The notes under the pieces were generated by a model. That model was not told the origin of the DNA. It saw only the letters and a program-made list of their open reading frames with translations, and did no database searches. Below are positions 1 to 7,142 of a stretch of 7,142 nucleotides of DNA, in pieces. The position numbers were made by a program, and so were the translations under genes. Each line of letters opens with the position of its first letter. Positions within the stretch are counted from its first letter, which is position 1. Source of the DNA: a virus (lineage: Duplodnaviria > Heunggongvirae > Uroviricota > Caudoviricetes); the IMG/VR virus record IMGVR_UViG_2740892219_000009, positions 1 to 7,142 of that record; one strand, written 5' to 3'.

Positions 1-11
1 CGGTGGGTTAC
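1..11. repeat. 3' half of a hairpin (cggtgggttac) identical to the 3' arm of the lipoprotein terminator at 3983..4004; cut by the window edge
   Basis: The 11-mer cggtgggttac at 1..11 is identical to 3994..4004, where it forms the loop end and 3' arm of the hairpin gtaacccac-ttcg-gtgggttac. The 5' arm of the copy at the window edge would lie outside the window. Confidence 0.4.
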
Positions 12-47
12 CCCCAAACGAATCGGAAAATCGATACTGGAAAAACT

Positions 48-179
48 CTAACTCGGTGGCCAGTTTTTGTTGACCACTTCATAGCCGTGGTTACGTGTCG
101 GTTGTCGCCCATTATCCGTTCCTTCTGACCACGCCAACATATCGAGGAAGGCTTTACGCTGAGGATTAAGATTTTGCAT
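48..179 (-). pseudogene. N-terminal fragment of a lambda R-type endolysin (lytic transglycosylase), 43 codons then an in-frame TAG
   Basis: Translating the minus strand from ATG at 179..177 gives MQNLNPQRKAFLDMLAWSEGTDNGRQPTRNHGYEVVNKNWPPS*. The first ~35 residues match the conserved N-terminus of lambda R endolysin (NQRKAFLDMLAWSEGTDNGRQ.TRNHGY, including the catalytic-Glu motif WSEGT). Similarity is lost right after NHGYEV and a stop follows at 50..48. The start overlaps the holin 3' end by 14 nt and has a GGGGTG Shine-Dalgarno. Too short for the ORF track. Confidence 0.55.
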
Positions 180-471
180 TTTTCACCCCTGTCAGTCGTT
201 CCCAGAAGTACGTCAGTGCAACCGAACCCATCGCACCACTAATCCCCGCTGTCGCGAGAATCATGTAAATACTGAATCCACTTTCGATGCTGATCAGGCC
301 ACCAATAACACCGGTGAATCCTGATACCACTATTTGAGCCAGAGCATTTATCCAACTCCACGTTGCTTTACTCTGCTTCACATCTATCAGGTAGCGGACC
401 AGACCGCCCCAACCTGCGATGATCAGCAAAACGAGCCAGAACGCTCCGGCAAGGCTCTCTTTTTCGTGCAT
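166..471 (-). CDS. Holin, about 101 aa with three predicted transmembrane segments
   Basis: Track ORF 166..585 (-); the likely real start is the ATG at 471 (MHEKESLAGAFWLVLLIIAGW...). Three hydrophobic stretches (AGAFWLVLLIIAGWGGLV, WINALAQIVVSGFTGVIGGLI, FSIYMILATAGISGAMGSVAL) are followed by a charged C-tail. It sits immediately upstream of and overlaps the R-type endolysin start, downstream of the Q candidate and late promoter. The start has no obvious Shine-Dalgarno, so the exact start is uncertain. Confidence 0.7.
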   Translation of the reverse strand: MHEKESLAGAFWLVLLIIAGWGGLVRYLIDVKQSKATWSWINALAQIVVSGFTGVIGGLISIESGFSIYMILATAGISGAMGSVALTYFWERLTGVKNAKS

Positions 472-782
472 ATGAATAGCCAATGTTTCGCCGCCGACAA
501 AAGGCCGGGACGTTAAATGACAGAAAGTTTGTTCACGAGGTAATTTAACGACAAAGCACGAGGTTAAAACTCCCTCAAAGACCAAAGATAAAAAAGGTCT
601 ACGCTGTTGGTTTCAGAGTTAGTTGCAATATTTCCTGATTATCCTAAGCTGAGTTCTGACTCACCAATTCAGGATGTATTTCAAAGAAGGATGATTAGTT
701 AGATTAATTAAAAAATCTATAAGGGCTCATGAAGAAAGCTAGAAAAAAATCAAATTAACGAACCAAAGCATTGGAAAAACAA

Positions 783-1094
783 ATGAAAGCAATTCAAATA
801 ACTTTAATATTATTACTGTGCAGCACAATCACTGCATGCTTTGCCTCCGATTCTGAAGGAAAATATGTTCAAGGTGACTGCATCACGGCTAACGACTCAA
901 GTTACACTTGGTTTGGTGAGGTGGCAAAAGTAGAAGCCTACACATATATCACTGGTTTTGCCGGTCCAAAGTACATCCTTTACTTCCCTTATTACAAAGC
1001 TGACTCTGTAGTTTTTGAACCTGAAATCGAAAATCACACGATTAAGGTTCCCTCCCGTTACTGTCAAAATATTAATAACGCTTTATCAAGATAA
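783..1094 (+). CDS. Small secreted protein or lipoprotein of unknown function (about 103 aa) in the Q-holin gap; AT-rich moron candidate
   Basis: Track ORF 771..1094 (+) begins at a TTG; the ATG at 783 gives MKAIQITLILLLCSTITACFAS..., a typical signal peptide with a possible lipobox ITA-C or an AXA-type cleavage site. The mature part has two Cys. The gene is visibly AT-rich compared with its neighbours and lies on the strand opposite to late transcription. No family recognised. Confidence 0.55.
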   Translation: MKAIQITLILLLCSTITACFASDSEGKYVQGDCITANDSSYTWFGEVAKVEAYTYITGFAGPKYILYFPYYKADSVVFEPEIENHTIKVPSRYCQNINNALSR

Positions 1095-1155
1095 GAAAGA
1101 ACCAAAACCACGATTATTAGATTTGTGCTCAAATTCACAATTATTGTGTACTATC

Positions 1156-1192
1156 TTCAAAGAATAAGCCCAAGGCTTTAAACCTCGGGCTT
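1156..1192 (-). terminator. Intrinsic terminator candidate on the minus strand (tR'-like), about 50 nt downstream of the candidate late promoter
   Basis: Minus-strand RNA would form a 10-bp stem AAGCCCGAGG / CCUUGGGCUU (one G-U pair) with a 7-nt loop UUUAAAG, followed by AUUCUUUGAA. On the plus strand the same dyad has an A-C mismatch and a weaker U-tail, so it may also act weakly for the plus-strand moron gene. Confidence 0.45.
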
Positions 1193-1247
1193 GAATTTGG
1201 ATTACTACCAGTGCGTACAACATTGGCAAAATATCAGATTTACATGA

Positions 1248-1276
1248 AATATATGCTTTTTAATCCAGTTTTGCAA
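1248..1276 (-). promoter_or_regulatory. Candidate sigma70 late promoter (PR'-like): -35 TTGCAA, 17-bp spacer, -10 TATATT
   Basis: Read on the minus strand: TTGCAA (1276..1271), a 17-nt spacer, then TATATT (1253..1248). Both hexamers are 5/6 to consensus with optimal spacing. The -10 lies 7 nt past the Q-candidate stop codon and the predicted start site (about 1241) is upstream of the hairpin at 1192..1156. This matches the lambdoid arrangement Q - PR'/qut - tR' - lysis genes. Confidence 0.4.
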
Positions 1277-1949
1277 TATCTTGCTGTGAAAATGTCGCCT
1301 TTTGTTTTGAACGTGTTCTCGTTACCAGCAATAAAGCTTCGCTATCAAGCTGTAGAAAAATGCGCTTCATTGCAACCCAGCGTTCAGTGAATGTCTCAGA
1401 CCAGTTTTTTGATGTCACTCCCACCAGTGATGCCAGCTCCTGGTATTCATAGGTCTCACGCCCTGCCAGTTCGCTCTTCACATCCTGTGCTGCCAGCCAG
1501 ATTAACGTCTTCAGGCGATCCAGTGTTTTACCTGCAATTTTTCTGGTACCCAACAGAGCCTTAAACTCGCTCCATGCCCACTGCGTTATGGCAACCTGAT
1601 GCTCCCAGCGAATATTTTCACTGTAACTCCACAGCAACCATGCTTTCTGATGTTCATCGAGAGACAAAATCGCACGCCGCCATGAAGAGGTTGAAAACTC
1701 GACCGAACTGACCAAGGCGACAGATGAACCTTTTGCGTACGACTGTTTACCGGAAATCGGCGGATTATCCAGCGTAATCATCTTGCCAGTTACCTCATCC
1801 AGAATGCGCGGCTTCTTTCGTTTATATGTACCAGTATCAAATTGTGCATGCTCCAGCCAGGCTTCAAGCTGGCCTTTCGTTGCTCCGCTCAAATCAGCGG
1901 TAGCCACCATGAGTTGCTCGCGGACATACTGTAAATATTGGATATTCAT
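1260..1949 (-). CDS. Putative late-gene antiterminator in the Q position (229 aa; not the lambda zinc-finger Q type)
   Basis: Track ORF with ATG at 1949 preceded by AAGGAG at 7-nt spacing; its start overlaps the ylcG-like stop (ATGA). It sits between rusA/ylcG and the late promoter and holin, exactly where lambdoid phages carry Q. The protein contains no cysteine, so it is not a lambda-type Q; assignment is positional. Confidence 0.5.
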   Translation of the reverse strand: MNIQYLQYVREQLMVATADLSGATKGQLEAWLEHAQFDTGTYKRKKPRILDEVTGKMITLDNPPISGKQSYAKGSSVALVSSVEFSTSSWRRAILSLDEHQKAWLLWSYSENIRWEHQVAITQWAWSEFKALLGTRKIAGKTLDRLKTLIWLAAQDVKSELAGRETYEYQELASLVGVTSKNWSETFTERWVAMKRIFLQLDSEALLLVTRTRSKQKATFSQQDIAKLD

Positions 1950-2086
1950 GCGGCAGCTCCTTTCAGCGTTTTGGCGTAATTCTTCAGTATCCGGTAATCG
2001 GTCAAAACAGAACCGGGAAAACTATATAAGCGCAGACACACCCAGCGGCGGCGAAGACGTTCTGCCATATAAGACTCAAACATCAT
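1946..2086 (-). CDS. ylcG: YlcG-like small protein (46 aa) between rusA and the Q candidate
   Basis: Hand-translated from the minus strand: [46 protein letters not shown]. The start overlaps the rusA stop (ATGATG over TGA) and the stop overlaps the Q ATG. Size and position match the small ylcG ORF of DLP12-type prophages as I recall it. Too short for the ORF track. Confidence 0.5.
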
Positions 2087-2445
2087 TCATCTCCCAGTTC
2101 AGTGATGGTCAGCTCCAGCTTCCCACCTTTGGTAACGGGCATCTTCACAACGCGGTAATCAACGACCTGAGCATCATCCAGCCAGAAACCTGCTTTGGTG
2201 AGAGCGTCAAAAGCGGCTTTTTGCAGATTATCCAGGTCACGGCGACGGCGATCCGGCATGTGGCACTCAATGCGGATTTTCACAGGAATAGCCAGGCCGA
2301 TATCCAGCATTGCGTTTTTAATGATTTGGGCGACGTTATCGCGGTATGCCTGCCCCTCTGCGCTGATATGCGTGCGTCCGCGATTATGGCGGTAATAGCG
2401 ATTATTGCTCGGCGGCCAGGGTAGTGTGATGCAGTAAGTATTCAC
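2083..2445 (-). CDS. rusA: RusA Holliday-junction resolvase (120 aa, GTG start)
   Basis: Track ORF 2083..2508 (-) is over-extended upstream; the GTG at 2445 overlaps the ybcO stop (GTGA). The sequence [24 protein letters not shown]...[38 protein letters not shown] is near-identical, from recall, to E. coli RusA, including the acidic catalytic cluster. Confidence 0.9.
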
Positions 2446-2732
2446 GCCTTGATTACCCCTTCTTTCAGCCAGATAACCAGTGTTCTCGCCATACCTTCCA
2501 GCGCACATTCTTTTGCATATCCAGCGTCAACAAAATGCGTGCGACGGTCGATTTCGTCGTGGCAGGCAGAACATGCAATGGTGGCAATCAGGTCTGGCGG
2601 TTTGGTACCGGTGCCGCACAATCCAGTCAGCCGGATATGTGCCAGTACAGACGTTTCAGGGTTGCCATTACATACGCCAGGGATTCTTACCTGGCATTCC
2701 CGACTACGCGCTGCTTTTCTCAAATCAGCCAT
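2442..2732 (-). CDS. ybcO: YbcO-family (DUF1364) putative zinc-binding nuclease (96 aa)
   Basis: The start at the internal ATG ([24 protein letters not shown]...) is preceded by AAGGAGG at 5-nt spacing inside the ninE 3' end. A four-Cys pattern (C-x7-C ... C-x2-C) is present. Track ORF 2442..2771 is an upstream extension. The position between ninE and rusA matches the DLP12 order. Confidence 0.8.
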
Positions 2733-2895
2733 GATTCCTCCTTGCTGCCAGTCGCAACCATTTTTTATCAACCAGGCTGGCGGTATATCCGAGCAGTGTT
2801 GGTATTTCGGAAGGCTTCAGCTCCGGTTTACGCTTACGACGATTTGGTACTCTGTAGATGTGTCCGCTCATGACACGAATAAGTGGTGTAGCCAT
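2725..2895 (-). CDS. ninE: NinE-like protein (56 aa)
   Basis: Hand-translated from the minus strand: [56 protein letters not shown]. The ATG at 2895 overlaps the ninB stop (TAATG) and is preceded by AGGAGG; the stop overlaps the ybcO start (ATGGCTGA). Too short for the ORF track. Confidence 0.7.
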   Translation of the reverse strand: MATPLIRVMSGHIYRVPNRRKRKPELKPSEIPTLLGYTASLVDKKWLRLAARRNHG

Positions 2896-3350
2896 TACGC
2901 CTCCTGCTTGTCGCGCAGCAGCTGGAACTCGCAGCTCTGCGGAATAGTCAGGTGACAGCCAATATTCATCGCCCAGGCTTCAACCTTACACAGGAAGACA
3001 TACATCTCTCCGGTATCAAGATCGGAGGTATGGCGTAACGACTGGATCGTAGTAATTTCACCGGTTACGACATCAACCAGGTCTTTGGTTTCATAACCGA
3101 GGTATGTGTGTTTGAGTGCATCTTTTACCCATACTGCAGTAGCGAACGTTTTACCCCTGCTGATGAGGTACTCACTGATTTCGCTGTACCACATGTGGCT
3201 GAGTGCATTCTGGGAAAGACTGCGTCTCTCGCGCCACGGCTTAAGCACCATGCGAAAGCATTTACCGTCCTCCAGATAAGGCTGGATCTGCTGACCGATA
3301 GCGGTGAAGTTACCGCGATGCAGTTTGATGCCATCTTGTGGGAGGTTCAC
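2895..3350 (-). CDS. ybcN: NinB/Orf-family recombination protein (YbcN-like, 151 aa, GTG start)
   Basis: Track ORF; GTG start at 3350 with a GGAGGT Shine-Dalgarno 5 nt upstream. The motif [23 protein letters not shown] resembles the lambda NinB core (RNRSLDQNRKLW...). It is the first gene of the overlapping nin chain. Confidence 0.8.
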
Positions 3351-3555
3351 GCTTCACCTCCGCAGAGGTCAAACGCTAGATGCAAAGAATTGCAGGTGCA
3401 TTTCTGCATCTGTGAAGGGAGAAGAGAGTTTGGATTGTATGTGCGCATAAACGTCCCCGTTTAGCGCAACCCCACCGCCGGGTGTTCAGGCCGACAGCAG
3501 AAGAATTTTCTCTTATTGATAATTGAAAATCAAAAGAATTTTATCGGTAAATGAT

Positions 3556-3584
3556 GTGATCAGATAAGAACCACATGATAGAAT
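3556..3584 (+). promoter_or_regulatory. Candidate promoter for the lipoprotein gene: extended -10 TGaTAGAAT with a weak -35 GTGATC
   Basis: TAGAAT at 3579..3584 is preceded by TG at 3576..3577; a weak -35 (3/6) lies 17 bp upstream. It sits about 37 nt before the ribosome-binding site AAGGA and the ATG at 3621. Confidence 0.3.
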
Positions 3585-3620
3585 CCGCCGGATTTTTTAG
3601 TGTAACAAAAGGAAAAAATA

Positions 3621-3977
3621 ATGAAAAAAATGTTGGCTGTCGCATTGGCAACCCTTTTGCTGACCGGATGTACCGTTCGTGTAGCAGACCTTACTGTAGC
3701 CAGTACAAAAAACTATAATTTAAATGGTGGTAAATTTTACAAAGGAAAACGCGTAACTGCAGAAGATAGCTATCCTGTTATCATCTTCCCAACAGGTATT
3801 CCCAATGTAAAAACTGCTGCCGATCGTGCAATCGAGCAAGACCGTTGCGCTGTGGGTCTGACTGACGTTGTTGTAACACAACTTAACCAATCATTCCTGG
3901 TTGGTAAAATTGGTTTACGTGTTGAAGGGAATCTCATTATTGACCGCAGCCTTCCTGGATGCGAAAACGCAGGATGA
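3621..3977 (+). CDS. Lipoprotein (118 aa), probably a divergent Bor/Iss-family member
   Basis: The N-terminus MKKMLAVALATLLLTGC has a canonical lipobox (LTGC) and is nearly the same as the lambda Bor signal peptide. The mature region shows patchy Bor-like similarity by eye (KTAADRAI..., VVTQLNQSFLVGKIGL versus Bor VKTETQQTFVNGLLGF). It is divergent from ninB and followed by a strong terminator. Confidence 0.65.
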   Translation: MKKMLAVALATLLLTGCTVRVADLTVASTKNYNLNGGKFYKGKRVTAEDSYPVIIFPTGIPNVKTAADRAIEQDRCAVGLTDVVVTQLNQSFLVGKIGLRVEGNLIIDRSLPGCENAG

Positions 3978-3982
3978 TGATA

Positions 3983-4010
3983 GTAACCCACTTCGGTGGG
4001 TTACTTTTTA
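3983..4010 (+). terminator. Rho-independent terminator of the lipoprotein gene: 9-bp stem, UUCG tetraloop, U-tract
   Basis: gtaacccac (3983..3991), ttcg (3992..3995), gtgggttac (3996..4004), then ttttta, starting 6 nt after the TGA stop. It is unidirectional; the minus-strand side has no U-tract. Confidence 0.75.
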
Positions 4011-4111
4011 TCTAAATCATATGTGCAGCCAACAAACAATATACAATTTACTCTAAATAGCTGTGGCAGCATTCTCTAACTTAATATTTATTCCGAAACA
4101 GAGTTAATTAT

Positions 4112-5638
4112 TTAAAAATAAACTTCCCCATCAATCATATACCTGAGAGTACTTATCGCCTGTTGGGCAGATATTATTTTCATCAAAGGATAGTGTTTAA
4201 AAACAATACCATTCATAAAATAGATATCACATGTTTTGTTATCTGTGTTTATTATAATTTTTTCGAATGTTTTATAAGCAAGTGTACGACATAATTCCCG
4301 CCCATTTTTACTGGTTAAATCAATGTCATGGAAATCACCAAGTGTACTTACACCTTTACTCTTCAAAGTTTTTAATGATATAGAAACCCTTCGCAATTCT
4401 TTATCTAATACTCTAATTTTTTCTGCTATAGCGGTAACTTCAGGTGCAACAGATAATGCAACAATTAAATTATTAATTTTCATCTGAAGTTCAATAACTT
4501 TCAATTCCAGAGTTTCATTAACATCTTTCTTATTTTCAACTGGTTGGATTTTACTACAATTAAAAAGCAATTCATTAACTATATTATAGTCAACCAAATC
4601 TCTTCTTATTGATGGCCTGTTACATCGATGCAATCTTCTCATCGGGCAAACATAATAGCCGTGCAAGCTTCCTGATACTGCATTAACAATCATAGTATTA
4701 CCACAAGCGCCGCACTTCATAACTGTTCGCAGTAGATTTATCAACATAGGATTCTTGCTACTATTGCTAATACCAAAAGGTGCCAGCCGAATTTCCTGCA
4801 CAGAGTAAAACAAATCATCTGATATCACTCTGGGATAATAGTCAGCGATTTCAATTATTCCCTTCCCTCTTGCACGATATGAAGGTACGCATATACCTAT
4901 CAGCGCTTTATTAGCTAATAATTTTTCAATTACAGAAGGCCCCCATGCACTTTCTTTTCCTGAGAAATTCTTTATAGCATGATCATTTAAATACTTAGCA
5001 ATTGCATTCAAAGAGCGTCTTTCCATCCTTAGTTTAAAAATCAGCTCAATCGTTTTCACCCTGTCAGGGTCTAAGACAAACGACGTTCTTTTTTCATCTA
5101 ATGAAAGCCATCTCGGGCAAGATGCCGTCATAATCGTACCTGACTCCATTGCATCTTGTCTTTTTTTCTTCCATGATAATTTAACTCGGCTTGACTTTAT
5201 CTCGCTTTCTTCATTGGCTCTTTGAGCTATAAGTATTGCTTTTATTAATGAATATGGTTCATTTAAAGAATCAATATTATAAGTTGTATTATCGCACAGA
5301 GTTATAACATCAATACCATGATTTAAAATCAGTTTCAGGCGTTCAATCGCCTCACCGACTTTTTCTCTTGAAAGTCTGTCCAGACTTTCAACTAGCAATG
5401 TAGTTCCTGGCAATATACAGCCATGCTCTATGGCATCTAAAAATTCCGAAAAAGCTCCTGACTGTGCATGCTTTCCATTGAATGCGCTTAACCCCAAATC
5501 TTCATACGTTACGGTATCAAGGTAATAATCACTATTTACCTTTAGCCATTCAGTAATAAGCCTTCTCTGACGGTTTAATGAATCACCAGACATCTGGCTT
5601 GGTGATGAAAATCGCATATATGCTATGGCTTTTTTCAT
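4112..5638 (-). CDS. Large serine recombinase (508 aa; resolvase-type catalytic domain, recombinase domain, Cys-rich zinc ribbon)
   Basis: The N-terminus MKKAIAYMRFSSPSQ...GDSLNRQ...LLVESLDRLSR carries the serine-recombinase catalytic motifs. The C-terminal half has the zinc-ribbon pattern KCGACGN...YYVCPMRRLHRC and a coiled-coil-like region. ATG at 5638 has an AGGTG Shine-Dalgarno. The gene is visibly AT-rich (roughly one-third GC by eye, against over half in the nin module). Size and context recall the DLP12 putative recombinase ybcK, but identity is unverified. Confidence 0.85.
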   Translation of the reverse strand: MKKAIAYMRFSSPSQMSGDSLNRQRRLITEWLKVNSDYYLDTVTYEDLGLSAFNGKHAQSGAFSEFLDAIEHGCILPGTTLLVESLDRLSREKVGEAIERLKLILNHGIDVITLCDNTTYNIDSLNEPYSLIKAILIAQRANEESEIKSSRVKLSWKKKRQDAMESGTIMTASCPRWLSLDEKRTSFVLDPDRVKTIELIFKLRMERRSLNAIAKYLNDHAIKNFSGKESAWGPSVIEKLLANKALIGICVPSYRARGKGIIEIADYYPRVISDDLFYSVQEIRLAPFGISNSSKNPMLINLLRTVMKCGACGNTMIVNAVSGSLHGYYVCPMRRLHRCNRPSIRRDLVDYNIVNELLFNCSKIQPVENKKDVNETLELKVIELQMKINNLIVALSVAPEVTAIAEKIRVLDKELRRVSISLKTLKSKGVSTLGDFHDIDLTSKNGRELCRTLAYKTFEKIIINTDNKTCDIYFMNGIVFKHYPLMKIISAQQAISTLRYMIDGEVYF

Positions 5639-5904
5639 GTTGACACCTGCTAATGCATACTTTTATAAACCTTAGCGGCGAGTTATAATTTTGTTTAATT
5701 TTTATTTAAAAAGACAATCGAGATCACATTTTCTTAAATATACAACAAATACCCCATAGCAATTTGCTGCCACATAAATTCACAGACACAAAAGAATATA
5801 GTGTATAAGCAGCCTAAAAACATTTATCAACAGTATAAAAAGAAGTTCGTTATCAGTGAATTGTTCTGTGATTGGGGATTATTGAACTTCTCGATCGAGA
5901 ATAT

Positions 5905-6198
5905 TCAGAACCCAGCGGGGGAACTCTTTGGCCACAGGAGTTCGTGCGAACATGACGATCCGTTGGTCTCCCCGAAGGCTAAATACTCGAGACGCCTGCA
6001 TTCCACGAGGGTGGTCACTTTGCCCCCTCCTATCATCATGTCTGTAAATTCATCTGAGTGACGAGAGTAAATGCGCTTAGCTGCGTTATCGTCCGCATAT
6101 TCCATTGCTAAACCAACTTCAGTGGCAGTAAGCCAAATTCTGTTGTTGTGGCAAATCGGGGTAAACGTCGTTTTGTGGAATGCTAATTGAGTAGTCAT
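5905..6198 (-). CDS. BRO-N / antirepressor-N-like domain protein (97 aa), possibly a truncated N-terminal fragment
   Basis: ATG at 6198 has a GAGGTG Shine-Dalgarno at 5-nt spacing. The motif F.K..FTPICHNNRIWLTATEVGLAMEYADD...SDEF resembles the BRO-N / P22 Ant N-terminal signature (F.F...IR...DGEPWF.A.DVA..LGY...D.DEK). The ORF ends where composition switches to AT-rich, and there is no C-terminal domain. Confidence 0.45.
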   Translation of the reverse strand: MTTQLAFHKTTFTPICHNNRIWLTATEVGLAMEYADDNAAKRIYSRHSDEFTDMMIGGGKVTTLVECRRLEYLAFGETNGSSCSHELLWPKSSPAGF

Positions 6199-6222
6199 AG
6201 TATCACCTCATCAGGTTAACAA

Positions 6223-6255
6223 TCACCACCAACGACGCCAATCGACAGGTGGTGA
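6223..6255. other. Inverted repeat with 8-bp stem (tcaccacc ... ggtggtga) and 17-nt spacer, upstream of the BRO-N-like gene
   Basis: Arms at 6223..6230 and 6248..6255, inside a GC-rich ORF-free stretch about 25 nt upstream of the BRO-N start. Could be an operator or an RNA hairpin. Confidence 0.3.
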
Positions 6256-6561
6256 ACTGTGCAAGGTTGGCGTAACCGGCTACACAAACCCGGCGCTTCC
6301 GAAGAAGCCCTCACACAGCCCACCATAATTTGGGCGTAGCCGCGCTTAGCGCATAAAAAAACTGCTTAACGCGGTATGCGTTGAGTAGTGTTCCGGGACG
6401 CCAATCCCGTGTGCCGATTTTGCGGCAACACAAAGAATTAGCCCCAGTGAATGGTGGCGGTCAACCGCAGTCATTCATTCTCATAATGTGATCACCATCA
6501 CTCAACAGGTTCCAGAAACCGCTCTATCATACTGACTTTAAACAGTTTTTAGGTGTTAAAT

Positions 6562-6948
6562 ATGTGGTTTATAGTATTAATAGCTATCCTGATTATTGCC
6601 GCTTTCGTTTTTAAAAGCTCCAAATCCAAAAATCCACCTTCGCAACCAGTTCGTACTACTAAAAAAATAAAGGCACCCACACATAAAAAAACGCAAACTA
6701 ACTATAGTTATAGTACCGATATCATTGAGTTAGATATAACTTATCAGGATGCGAAGGGCGAAATCACTAATCGCCATATATCTATCATAAAATACGACCC
6801 TTCAAAGAAAAAAATATATGCACGGTGCCATTTAAGAAAAAGCATGCGAAGTTTCTATATTGATAGAATATTAACCGCAATAGATATTGAAACTGGCGAA
6901 ATTCTTTCAGATCTCGACGGGTATATATCAGAAAGAATAAACTATTAA
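6562..6948 (+). CDS. Small membrane-anchored protein (128 aa) with a WYL-like C-terminal domain
   Basis: Track ORF 6553..6948 starts at a GTG; the ATG at 6562 is preceded by AGGTG at 6-nt spacing. The N-terminus WFIVLIAILIIAAFVF is a single transmembrane helix, followed by a Lys/Ser/Thr-rich linker and a beta-rich domain containing KIYARCHLRKSMRSFYIDRI, which resembles the WYL-domain core (WYL.A.C......R.FR.DRI). The gene is AT-rich. Confidence 0.6.
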   Translation: MWFIVLIAILIIAAFVFKSSKSKNPPSQPVRTTKKIKAPTHKKTQTNYSYSTDIIELDITYQDAKGEITNRHISIIKYDPSKKKIYARCHLRKSMRSFYIDRILTAIDIETGEILSDLDGYISERINY

Positions 6949-7142
6949 CATTCAATATATTTACCCCAAGCATTATGTGCCGGGGCATGTAATTATATGA
7001 CCATTGATAATTCCATTTTGTAAATATTTAGGTTGTCATCAATGATAGTGCGTTTACTTTTCCATACACAGCCAACACTCGTTTCATCGCGACACTCTGG
7101 CGACACTCCTTAAAAATCAGGTTCGTGCTCACCTTTCCTTCC

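Follow-up and report, generated by a model that had tools for sequence, protein, structure and literature searches.

A predicted late control region of the phage 82 type in a caudovirus prophage, and the place of the Salmonella small RNA IsrJ in related phages

Late promoters of phage 82 and comparable systems

The Q antiterminators comprise three families that have a common function and genome position without a common sequence, and one of these, the Q82 family (PF06323), is separate from the family of lambda Q (PMC9388147). Work on pR', the phage 82 late promoter, goes back to 1980, and the short RNA that it gives is a known product; phages 21, phi80, 82 and P22 are described as making antitermination-regulated short RNAs from their late promoters (Sy et al., PMC7547250). 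The 82 Q-binding element is located between the -35 and -10 hexamers (PMC4914094). The wild-type initial transcribed region of 82 pR' opens with AAA and carries a pause element that is nearer to TATAAT than the element of lambda and has an extended -10; GCC occupies the discriminator position at +15-17, and the major pauses fall at +25/+26, where position +25 is naturally a U (Bird et al., PMC5001585).

Here we analyze a stretch of 7,142 nucleotides from a caudovirus prophage (hereafter the window; positions 1 to 7,142 of IMG/VR record IMGVR_UViG_2740892219_000009). Judging from sequence comparison, the minus-strand region directly behind its Q gene is very probably a late control region of the phage 82 type, consisting of pR', a sigma70-dependent pause element and a late terminator. 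As such the element is already known: it is an ordinary, near-identical copy of the intensively studied 82 late region, and the prophage would carry the standard phage 82-type late switch, a classic model of sigma70-dependent pausing and Q antitermination. What goes beyond the known is the junction of an inserted cassette in the U-tract of the terminator, a convergent orphan gene within that cassette, and the apparent identity of the Salmonella small RNA IsrJ with a Q82-type late-promoter leader.

The closest comparison is with phage 82 itself, with which the window shares a near-identical Q, the -35 region, the AAA start, the pause element, the GCC and the U at +25, so that a short terminated RNA is expected; the differences are an altered U-tract and the cassette, of about 590 bp, that follows the terminator. 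Phage 434 (OL657226) likewise has a Q82-like Q, the same -35, spacer and -10, an annotated paQ/CII box, and a terminator annotated just past Q. However, its pause element reads TGgTATGTT, it has no first leader hairpin, and its terminator begins at +28, leaving a leader of about 55 nt. The predicted region would resemble the lambda PR'-qut-tR' system in its constitutive promoter, its sigma70-dependent promoter-proximal pause, its candidate Q-binding element (QBE) between -35 and -10, its intrinsic terminator and its Q-dependent read-through into the lysis genes, but there is no sequence homology between the two. The Q proteins are unrelated (PF03589 in lambda, PF06323 here), the pause lies at +16/17 in lambda and is predicted at +25/26 here, and the lambda leader is 194 nt long against a predicted length of about 83 nt here. 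StxS, too, is a short RNA that arises in lysogens when the late transcript terminates prematurely, but its Q and promoter are of another family, it matures by processing of a longer leader, and an Hfq-dependent function has been demonstrated for it (PMC7547250).

The Q gene, the promoter and the pause element

The Q antiterminator gene occupies positions 1260-1949 on the minus strand and encodes a protein of 229 amino acids without a single cysteine. Among Pfam families the protein matches only PF06323 (322 bits), not the lambda-family PF03589, and among PHROGs it matches PHROG 304 (360 bits). It is 92% identical to the Q protein of phage 82 (record X92588), the two genes being 93.7% identical at the nucleotide level, and the genes upstream of it are collinear with X92588: ninB-like orf151, ninE-like orf56, ybcO-like orf96, rus/rusA, orf45 (ylcG) and then Q. 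The initial annotation had supposed that this Q candidate acts at the adjoining promoter even though it lacks the lambda-type zinc finger. The supposition is borne out insofar as the protein is, by sequence, an orthologue of phage 82 Q, and the remark about the zinc finger is true as well. Absence of a zinc finger is a trait of the Q82 family, to be expected in a protein with no cysteine, and is therefore no argument against Q function. The protein has neither PF03589 nor the zinc-binding motif; the system is lambda-like in its working, yet not a member of the lambda-type Q/PR' system. A sequence search for relatives of this Q protein with a solved structure in the PDB found none.

The predicted late promoter overlaps the 3' end of Q. 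Its -35 hexamer, TTGCAA (1276-1271, minus strand), is palindromic and sits in the last codons of the gene, ahead of the last sense codon, GAT (1265-1263), and the stop codon, TAA (1262-1260). The stop lies inside the 17-nt promoter spacer (1270-1254), which by analogy with phage 82 would also contain the Q-binding element. The -10 hexamer, TATATT, follows at 1253-1248, located by a pattern scan and by conservation, and the predicted transcription start is an A at 1241, 7 nt after the -10 and about 20 nt past the stop codon. The transcript would begin AAAUCUGAUAUUUUGCCAAUGUUGUA, with AAA first. This start agrees with the features published for 82 pR' (PMC5001585) and is the one that the initial annotation had predicted for the minus strand. 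The same source had spoken of a near-consensus promoter 7 nt past the Q stop. The distance stands, in that the -10 begins 7 nt past the TAA, whereas "near-consensus" is generous: the two hexamers match the consensus at 9 of 12 positions, and promoter-like hexamer pairs of such quality number 19 in the window against 17.1 expected from shuffles. Because such pairs are equally frequent in shuffled sequence, the hexamers alone are no evidence; what supports the predicted promoter and terminator beyond chance is homology and conservation.

Homology can be followed directly as far as the phage 82 record extends. Compared with the last 40 nt of X92588, the stretch from -45 to -19 differs at one base and that from -35 to -19 is identical. 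X92588 stops at the Q stop codon, and past this point the match to 82 pR' runs through published descriptions and relatives in place of a direct alignment. When +1 is set at 1241, the positional features published for 82 pR' (PMC5001585) are found in four of four cases over 1241-1217. The initial AAA corresponds to AAA at +1 to +3; the extended -10 to TG at +6/+7, together with the -10-like hexamer to TATTTT at +9 to +14; the discriminator GCC to GCC at +15 to +17; and the U at the pause to a U at +25. The predicted sigma70-dependent pause element, TGaTATTTT (+6 to +14) followed by GCC, occupies 1225-1236 on the minus strand, and the promoter-proximal pause is predicted, from the published numbering, at 1216-1217 (+25 and +26). 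A search of the full-text literature for the literal sequence TGATATTTTGCC returned only unrelated papers.

The same elements recur widely. Of 5,426 complete E. coli genomes, 851 (about 16%) contain segment 1161-1300, with 95-99% identity. For a more distant comparison we assembled 25 loci from other species of Enterobacteriaceae, whose Q proteins are 60-74% identical to that of the window, along with 80 close viral contigs; an alignment anchored on the start site contained 24 distinct sequences with Q proteins 60-92% identical. All of these 24 loci share one geometry of promoter, Q 3' end and start, and TTGCAA hardly varies among them. In the transcribed region, T+4, G+7, T+9, A+10 and T+14 are invariant and form the motif TGnTAnnnT, which is carried by 102 of 110 loci. 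The bases of this motif are those that matter in sigma70 recognition of an extended -10. The comparative set amounts to a map of natural mutations for the Q82-type pause element, in which TGnTAnnnT is invariant while spacer, leader and terminator vary freely.

Nine loci (L036, L046, L047, L050, L056, L081, L083, L102 and L107) form a subgroup of close relatives that keeps the promoter and the pause element, diverges directly behind the pause site, from about +26, and has no hairpin of the terminator type in the first 170 nt after the start. On the strand opposite Q, TTGCaatatcTTGC at 1271-1284 fits the CII-binding consensus TTGCN6TTGC and overlaps the palindromic -35 hexamer; paQ is annotated at the equivalent place in phage 434, and the first TTGC repeat is not retained in the more distant relatives.

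Terminator, leader RNA and the inserted cassette

Shortly downstream of the pause site lies an intrinsic terminator, tR' (1158-1192, minus strand). Its stem-loop spans 1192-1166 (+50 to +76), begins 49 nt downstream of the start and reads AAGCCCGAGGUU-UAA-AGCCUUGGGCUU; 6 of its 12 pairs are G-C and its loop is 3 nt long, and the tail AUUCUUUG (1165-1158, +77 to +84) has 5 U in 8. The minus-strand hairpin, with a folding energy of -18.6 kcal/mol (z = -5.1), is the best terminator-like site of the entire window. The strong hairpin with a U-rich tail that had been noted roughly 50 nt past the predicted start is therefore present. No further strong minus-strand terminator was found between 1160 and the start of the holin gene. 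Weak Rfam matches over the hairpin, among them MicC and Thr leader, are far below threshold and were set aside as reflecting a generic terminator, and a literature search under the native terminator name, t82, yielded nothing relevant.

The leader RNA is predicted to measure about 83-85 nt, with its 3' end near 1159-1157. The short minus-strand transcript of about 85 nt proposed earlier accords in length with the published features of 82 pR' (PMC5001585). As an 85-nt RNA the leader folds at -26.8 kcal/mol (z = -4.0), and the minimum-free-energy structure includes an optional first hairpin at 1205-1229 (+13 to +37), whose 5' arm contains the pause-associated GCC (+15-17). In many relatives, those of the IsrJ type among them, a hairpin of another sequence takes its place, and 434-type leaders have none.

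Of 54 distinct homologous leaders, 48 have a terminator-like hairpin; the same search is positive in 5 of 54 shuffles and in 1 of 51 control pieces from within Q. At least 26 different hairpin sequences with T-rich tails were found, ending at +48 to +79 or, in two loci, at +114. The fact that terminators without homology to one another replace each other at a fixed position strongly indicates that selection acts on termination itself. The hairpin type of the window is present in 35 loci, and its natural stem variants keep the pairing only in the Q-sense (minus-strand) RNA: a C to U change in the 5' arm gives a U-G pair (15 loci), a C to U change in the 3' arm gives a G-U pair (11 loci), and in 2 loci the 3'-arm change is accompanied by G to A on the opposite side, which restores an A-U pair.

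From these features we propose the following course of events. Host sigma70 RNA polymerase would start constitutively at A1241 from pR'; sigma70 would then re-bind the extended -10-like TGaTATTTT (+6 to +14), and the complex would pause at about +25/+26. Without Q, the polymerase would resume and terminate at the hairpin and U-rich tail (+50 to about +84), releasing a leader RNA of 83-85 nt that would be the counterpart of lambda 6S RNA. With Q, the Q82-family protein would bind the spacer site and load onto the paused complex, which would become termination-resistant, read through the terminator, run antisense across 783-1094 and enter the holin and lysis genes. The observations are the sequence features, which fit published 82 pR' and are conserved, and the fold of the RNA; from them we infer, for this copy, promoter activity, pausing, the efficiency of termination and a dependence of read-through on Q. 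Activity of this prophage copy is not assured, given signs of rearrangement elsewhere in the window, where ant looks truncated and a recombinase gene seems to have been inserted. The PR'-qut-tR' logic suggested in the initial annotation is borne out at the level of sequence by the Q82 orthologue, the promoter, pause and terminator features, and their conservation.

Homology to other Q82-type prophages ends directly past the terminator stem and resumes at 574. Between these points lies an inserted cassette of about 590 bp (575-1165), which stands in place of about 120 bp in relatives and has no match in the 5,426 complete E. coli genomes. Its junction falls in, or adjoins, the U-tract, and the tail has thereby changed from UUCUGUUU, found in all other loci with this hairpin, to AUUCUUUG, found only in the window and in a metagenomic contig (L084). 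Termination might be somewhat weaker with the altered tail.

The cassette carries a plus-strand accessory ("moron") gene (783-1094), convergent with the late operon, whose 103-amino-acid product has a signal peptide and two conserved cysteines. Pfam, PHROG, NCBIfam, tblastn against phages and the E. coli genomes gave no match from which to assign it to a family. The gene is 100% identical in L084, and a Citrobacter prophage (L022) has a homologue of 68% identity at this site, likewise convergent but behind a different tR'. That homologue at the same site indicates that the gene is real and that the site is a recurrent insertion point. Beyond the cassette, the first late gene that read-through would meet is the holin (166-471, minus strand; PF16083, PHROG 785), and it follows from the geometry, as had been pointed out, that read-through transcripts would cross the plus-strand moron gene in antisense before reaching the holin at 471-166.

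IsrJ, alternative readings and other features of the window

IsrJ is a virulence-associated Salmonella small RNA of roughly 74 nt that was detected by primer extension (PMC2330248) and is highly transcribed in lysogens (bioRxiv 10.1101/787010). A leader homologous to the one predicted here has thus been seen as an RNA, which favors the phage 82-type reading. In Gifsy-1, where the match to the Rfam IsrJ model (RF01393) reaches 100 bits, the sequence reads TTGCAAAACTGGATTAA-N9-TATATT-TTATGTAAATCTGATATCG, with the same -35, Q 3' end, -10 and pause element as the window, and the Gifsy-1 AntQ protein (STM2617) is 71% identical to the Q of the window. In 7 loci an above-threshold IsrJ match (38-100 bits among the relatives) begins 16 nt past the stop codon of Q, which is the same offset as in the window. 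The window itself gives 25.1 bits at 1165-1244 on the minus strand, under the threshold of 37. It resembles IsrJ in its place relative to the TTGCAAAACTGGATTAA / TATATT promoter, in its 5' end (UGUAAAUCUGAUAU) and in its terminator of the AAGCC...GGCUU type, but the middle hairpin of IsrJ is unlike its own.

Judged by this comparison of sequences, the Q82-type late operon of Gifsy-1 appears to have IsrJ as its pR' leader. The literature on IsrJ, IsrK and StxS, as far as we searched it, contains no description of IsrJ as a late-promoter leader. If the identification is true, the IsrJ promoter falls under the logic of AntQ antitermination, which may change how the regulation of IsrJ is read.

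IsrJ sits at the place of the Q82-type pR' leader in Gifsy-1 (L109, NC_010392, 1487-3127), with the same promoter and a remnant of the Q 3' end, and likewise in L005, L008, L010, L012, L015, L026 and L027, at about 3706-3785. In Gifsy-1 a module of about 840 bp, isrK-C4-orf45-anrP, lies between the AntQ gene and the IsrJ promoter.

Several other readings of the region have to be weighed against the phage 82-type interpretation. Promoter-like hexamer pairs are no commoner in the window than in shuffles, and a pR' that matches at only 9 of 12 positions could be one of the chance matches, or decayed remnants, to be met in an AT-rich intergenic region. Because positions are conserved across genera, the pause bases are invariant, terminators are replaced by non-homologous ones and the features fit published 82 pR', we hold this reading to be extremely improbable, and conservation rules out a chance promoter in particular. 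We also think it unlikely that the hairpin at 1166-1192 serves mainly as the terminator of the plus-strand gene 783-1094, or bidirectionally for both convergent units. That gene does point toward the hairpin and ends 72 nt before it, the stop codon of its Citrobacter homologue abuts the tR' T-tract of that phage, and the antisense strand is also terminator-like in 26 of 54 leader regions. However, the hairpin is older than the cassette: it belongs to the block common to the 851 E. coli genomes, which have no cassette, and homology breaks only after it. The plus-strand fold, at -13.1 kcal/mol, is also weaker than that of the minus strand, because a G-U pair turns into an A-C mismatch; on that strand the hairpin is followed by GAAUUUGG in place of a U-tract, and the natural stem variants are G-U compatible in the minus sense only. 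On the strand asymmetry and the position of the homology break we reject a primarily plus-strand terminator; the hairpin may have a minor, weak bidirectional role for plus-strand transcripts.

The short leader could instead be a trans-acting regulatory sRNA of the lysogen, like IsrJ of Gifsy-1 or StxS of the Stx phages, and this too we regard as improbable. The weak IsrJ match in the window and the true matches at the same position after Q82-family genes are in keeping with such a role; IsrJ has been reported to affect invasion and effector translocation (PMC2330248), and the pR'-tR' product StxS has regulatory activity (PMC7547250). But the window falls short of the gathering threshold of the Rfam IsrJ model, the middle part of the leader is not conserved between the window type and the IsrJ type and is missing altogether from 434-type leaders, and the conserved bases are exactly those for promoter and pause function at the DNA level. 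The interrupted U-tail here would moreover be unfavorable for Hfq binding. A combined proposal, in which the leader of about 83 nt forms one family with IsrJ and perhaps acts in trans on host genes in lysogens, while 783-1094 is silenced by, or interferes with, antisense late transcription, is speculative and in our view has little likelihood. We therefore continue to favor the reading of the region as a late control element of the phage 82 type.

Elsewhere in the window, 6245-6440 on the minus strand matches the Rfam families C4 antisense RNA (75 bits) and isrK (52.7 bits), and it matches the a1/b1 target at 32 bits, under the gathering score of 46.7. C4, isrK and a1/b1 at this position make up an antirepressor control module resembling immI of P1/P7, situated upstream of the nin region, and it is the same module as that found between antQ and IsrJ in Gifsy-1. 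A 97-amino-acid ORF (5905-6198, minus strand) matches only the N-terminal part of Ant antirepressors and is followed by a large serine recombinase of 508 amino acids (4112-5638, minus strand). This suggests that the ant gene was truncated by insertion or rearrangement. Within 3621-4005 (plus strand), on the strand opposite the nin genes, a gene for a 118-amino-acid lipoprotein (PHROG 7441) is followed by a clean terminator at 3982-4005 and is probably another accessory gene.
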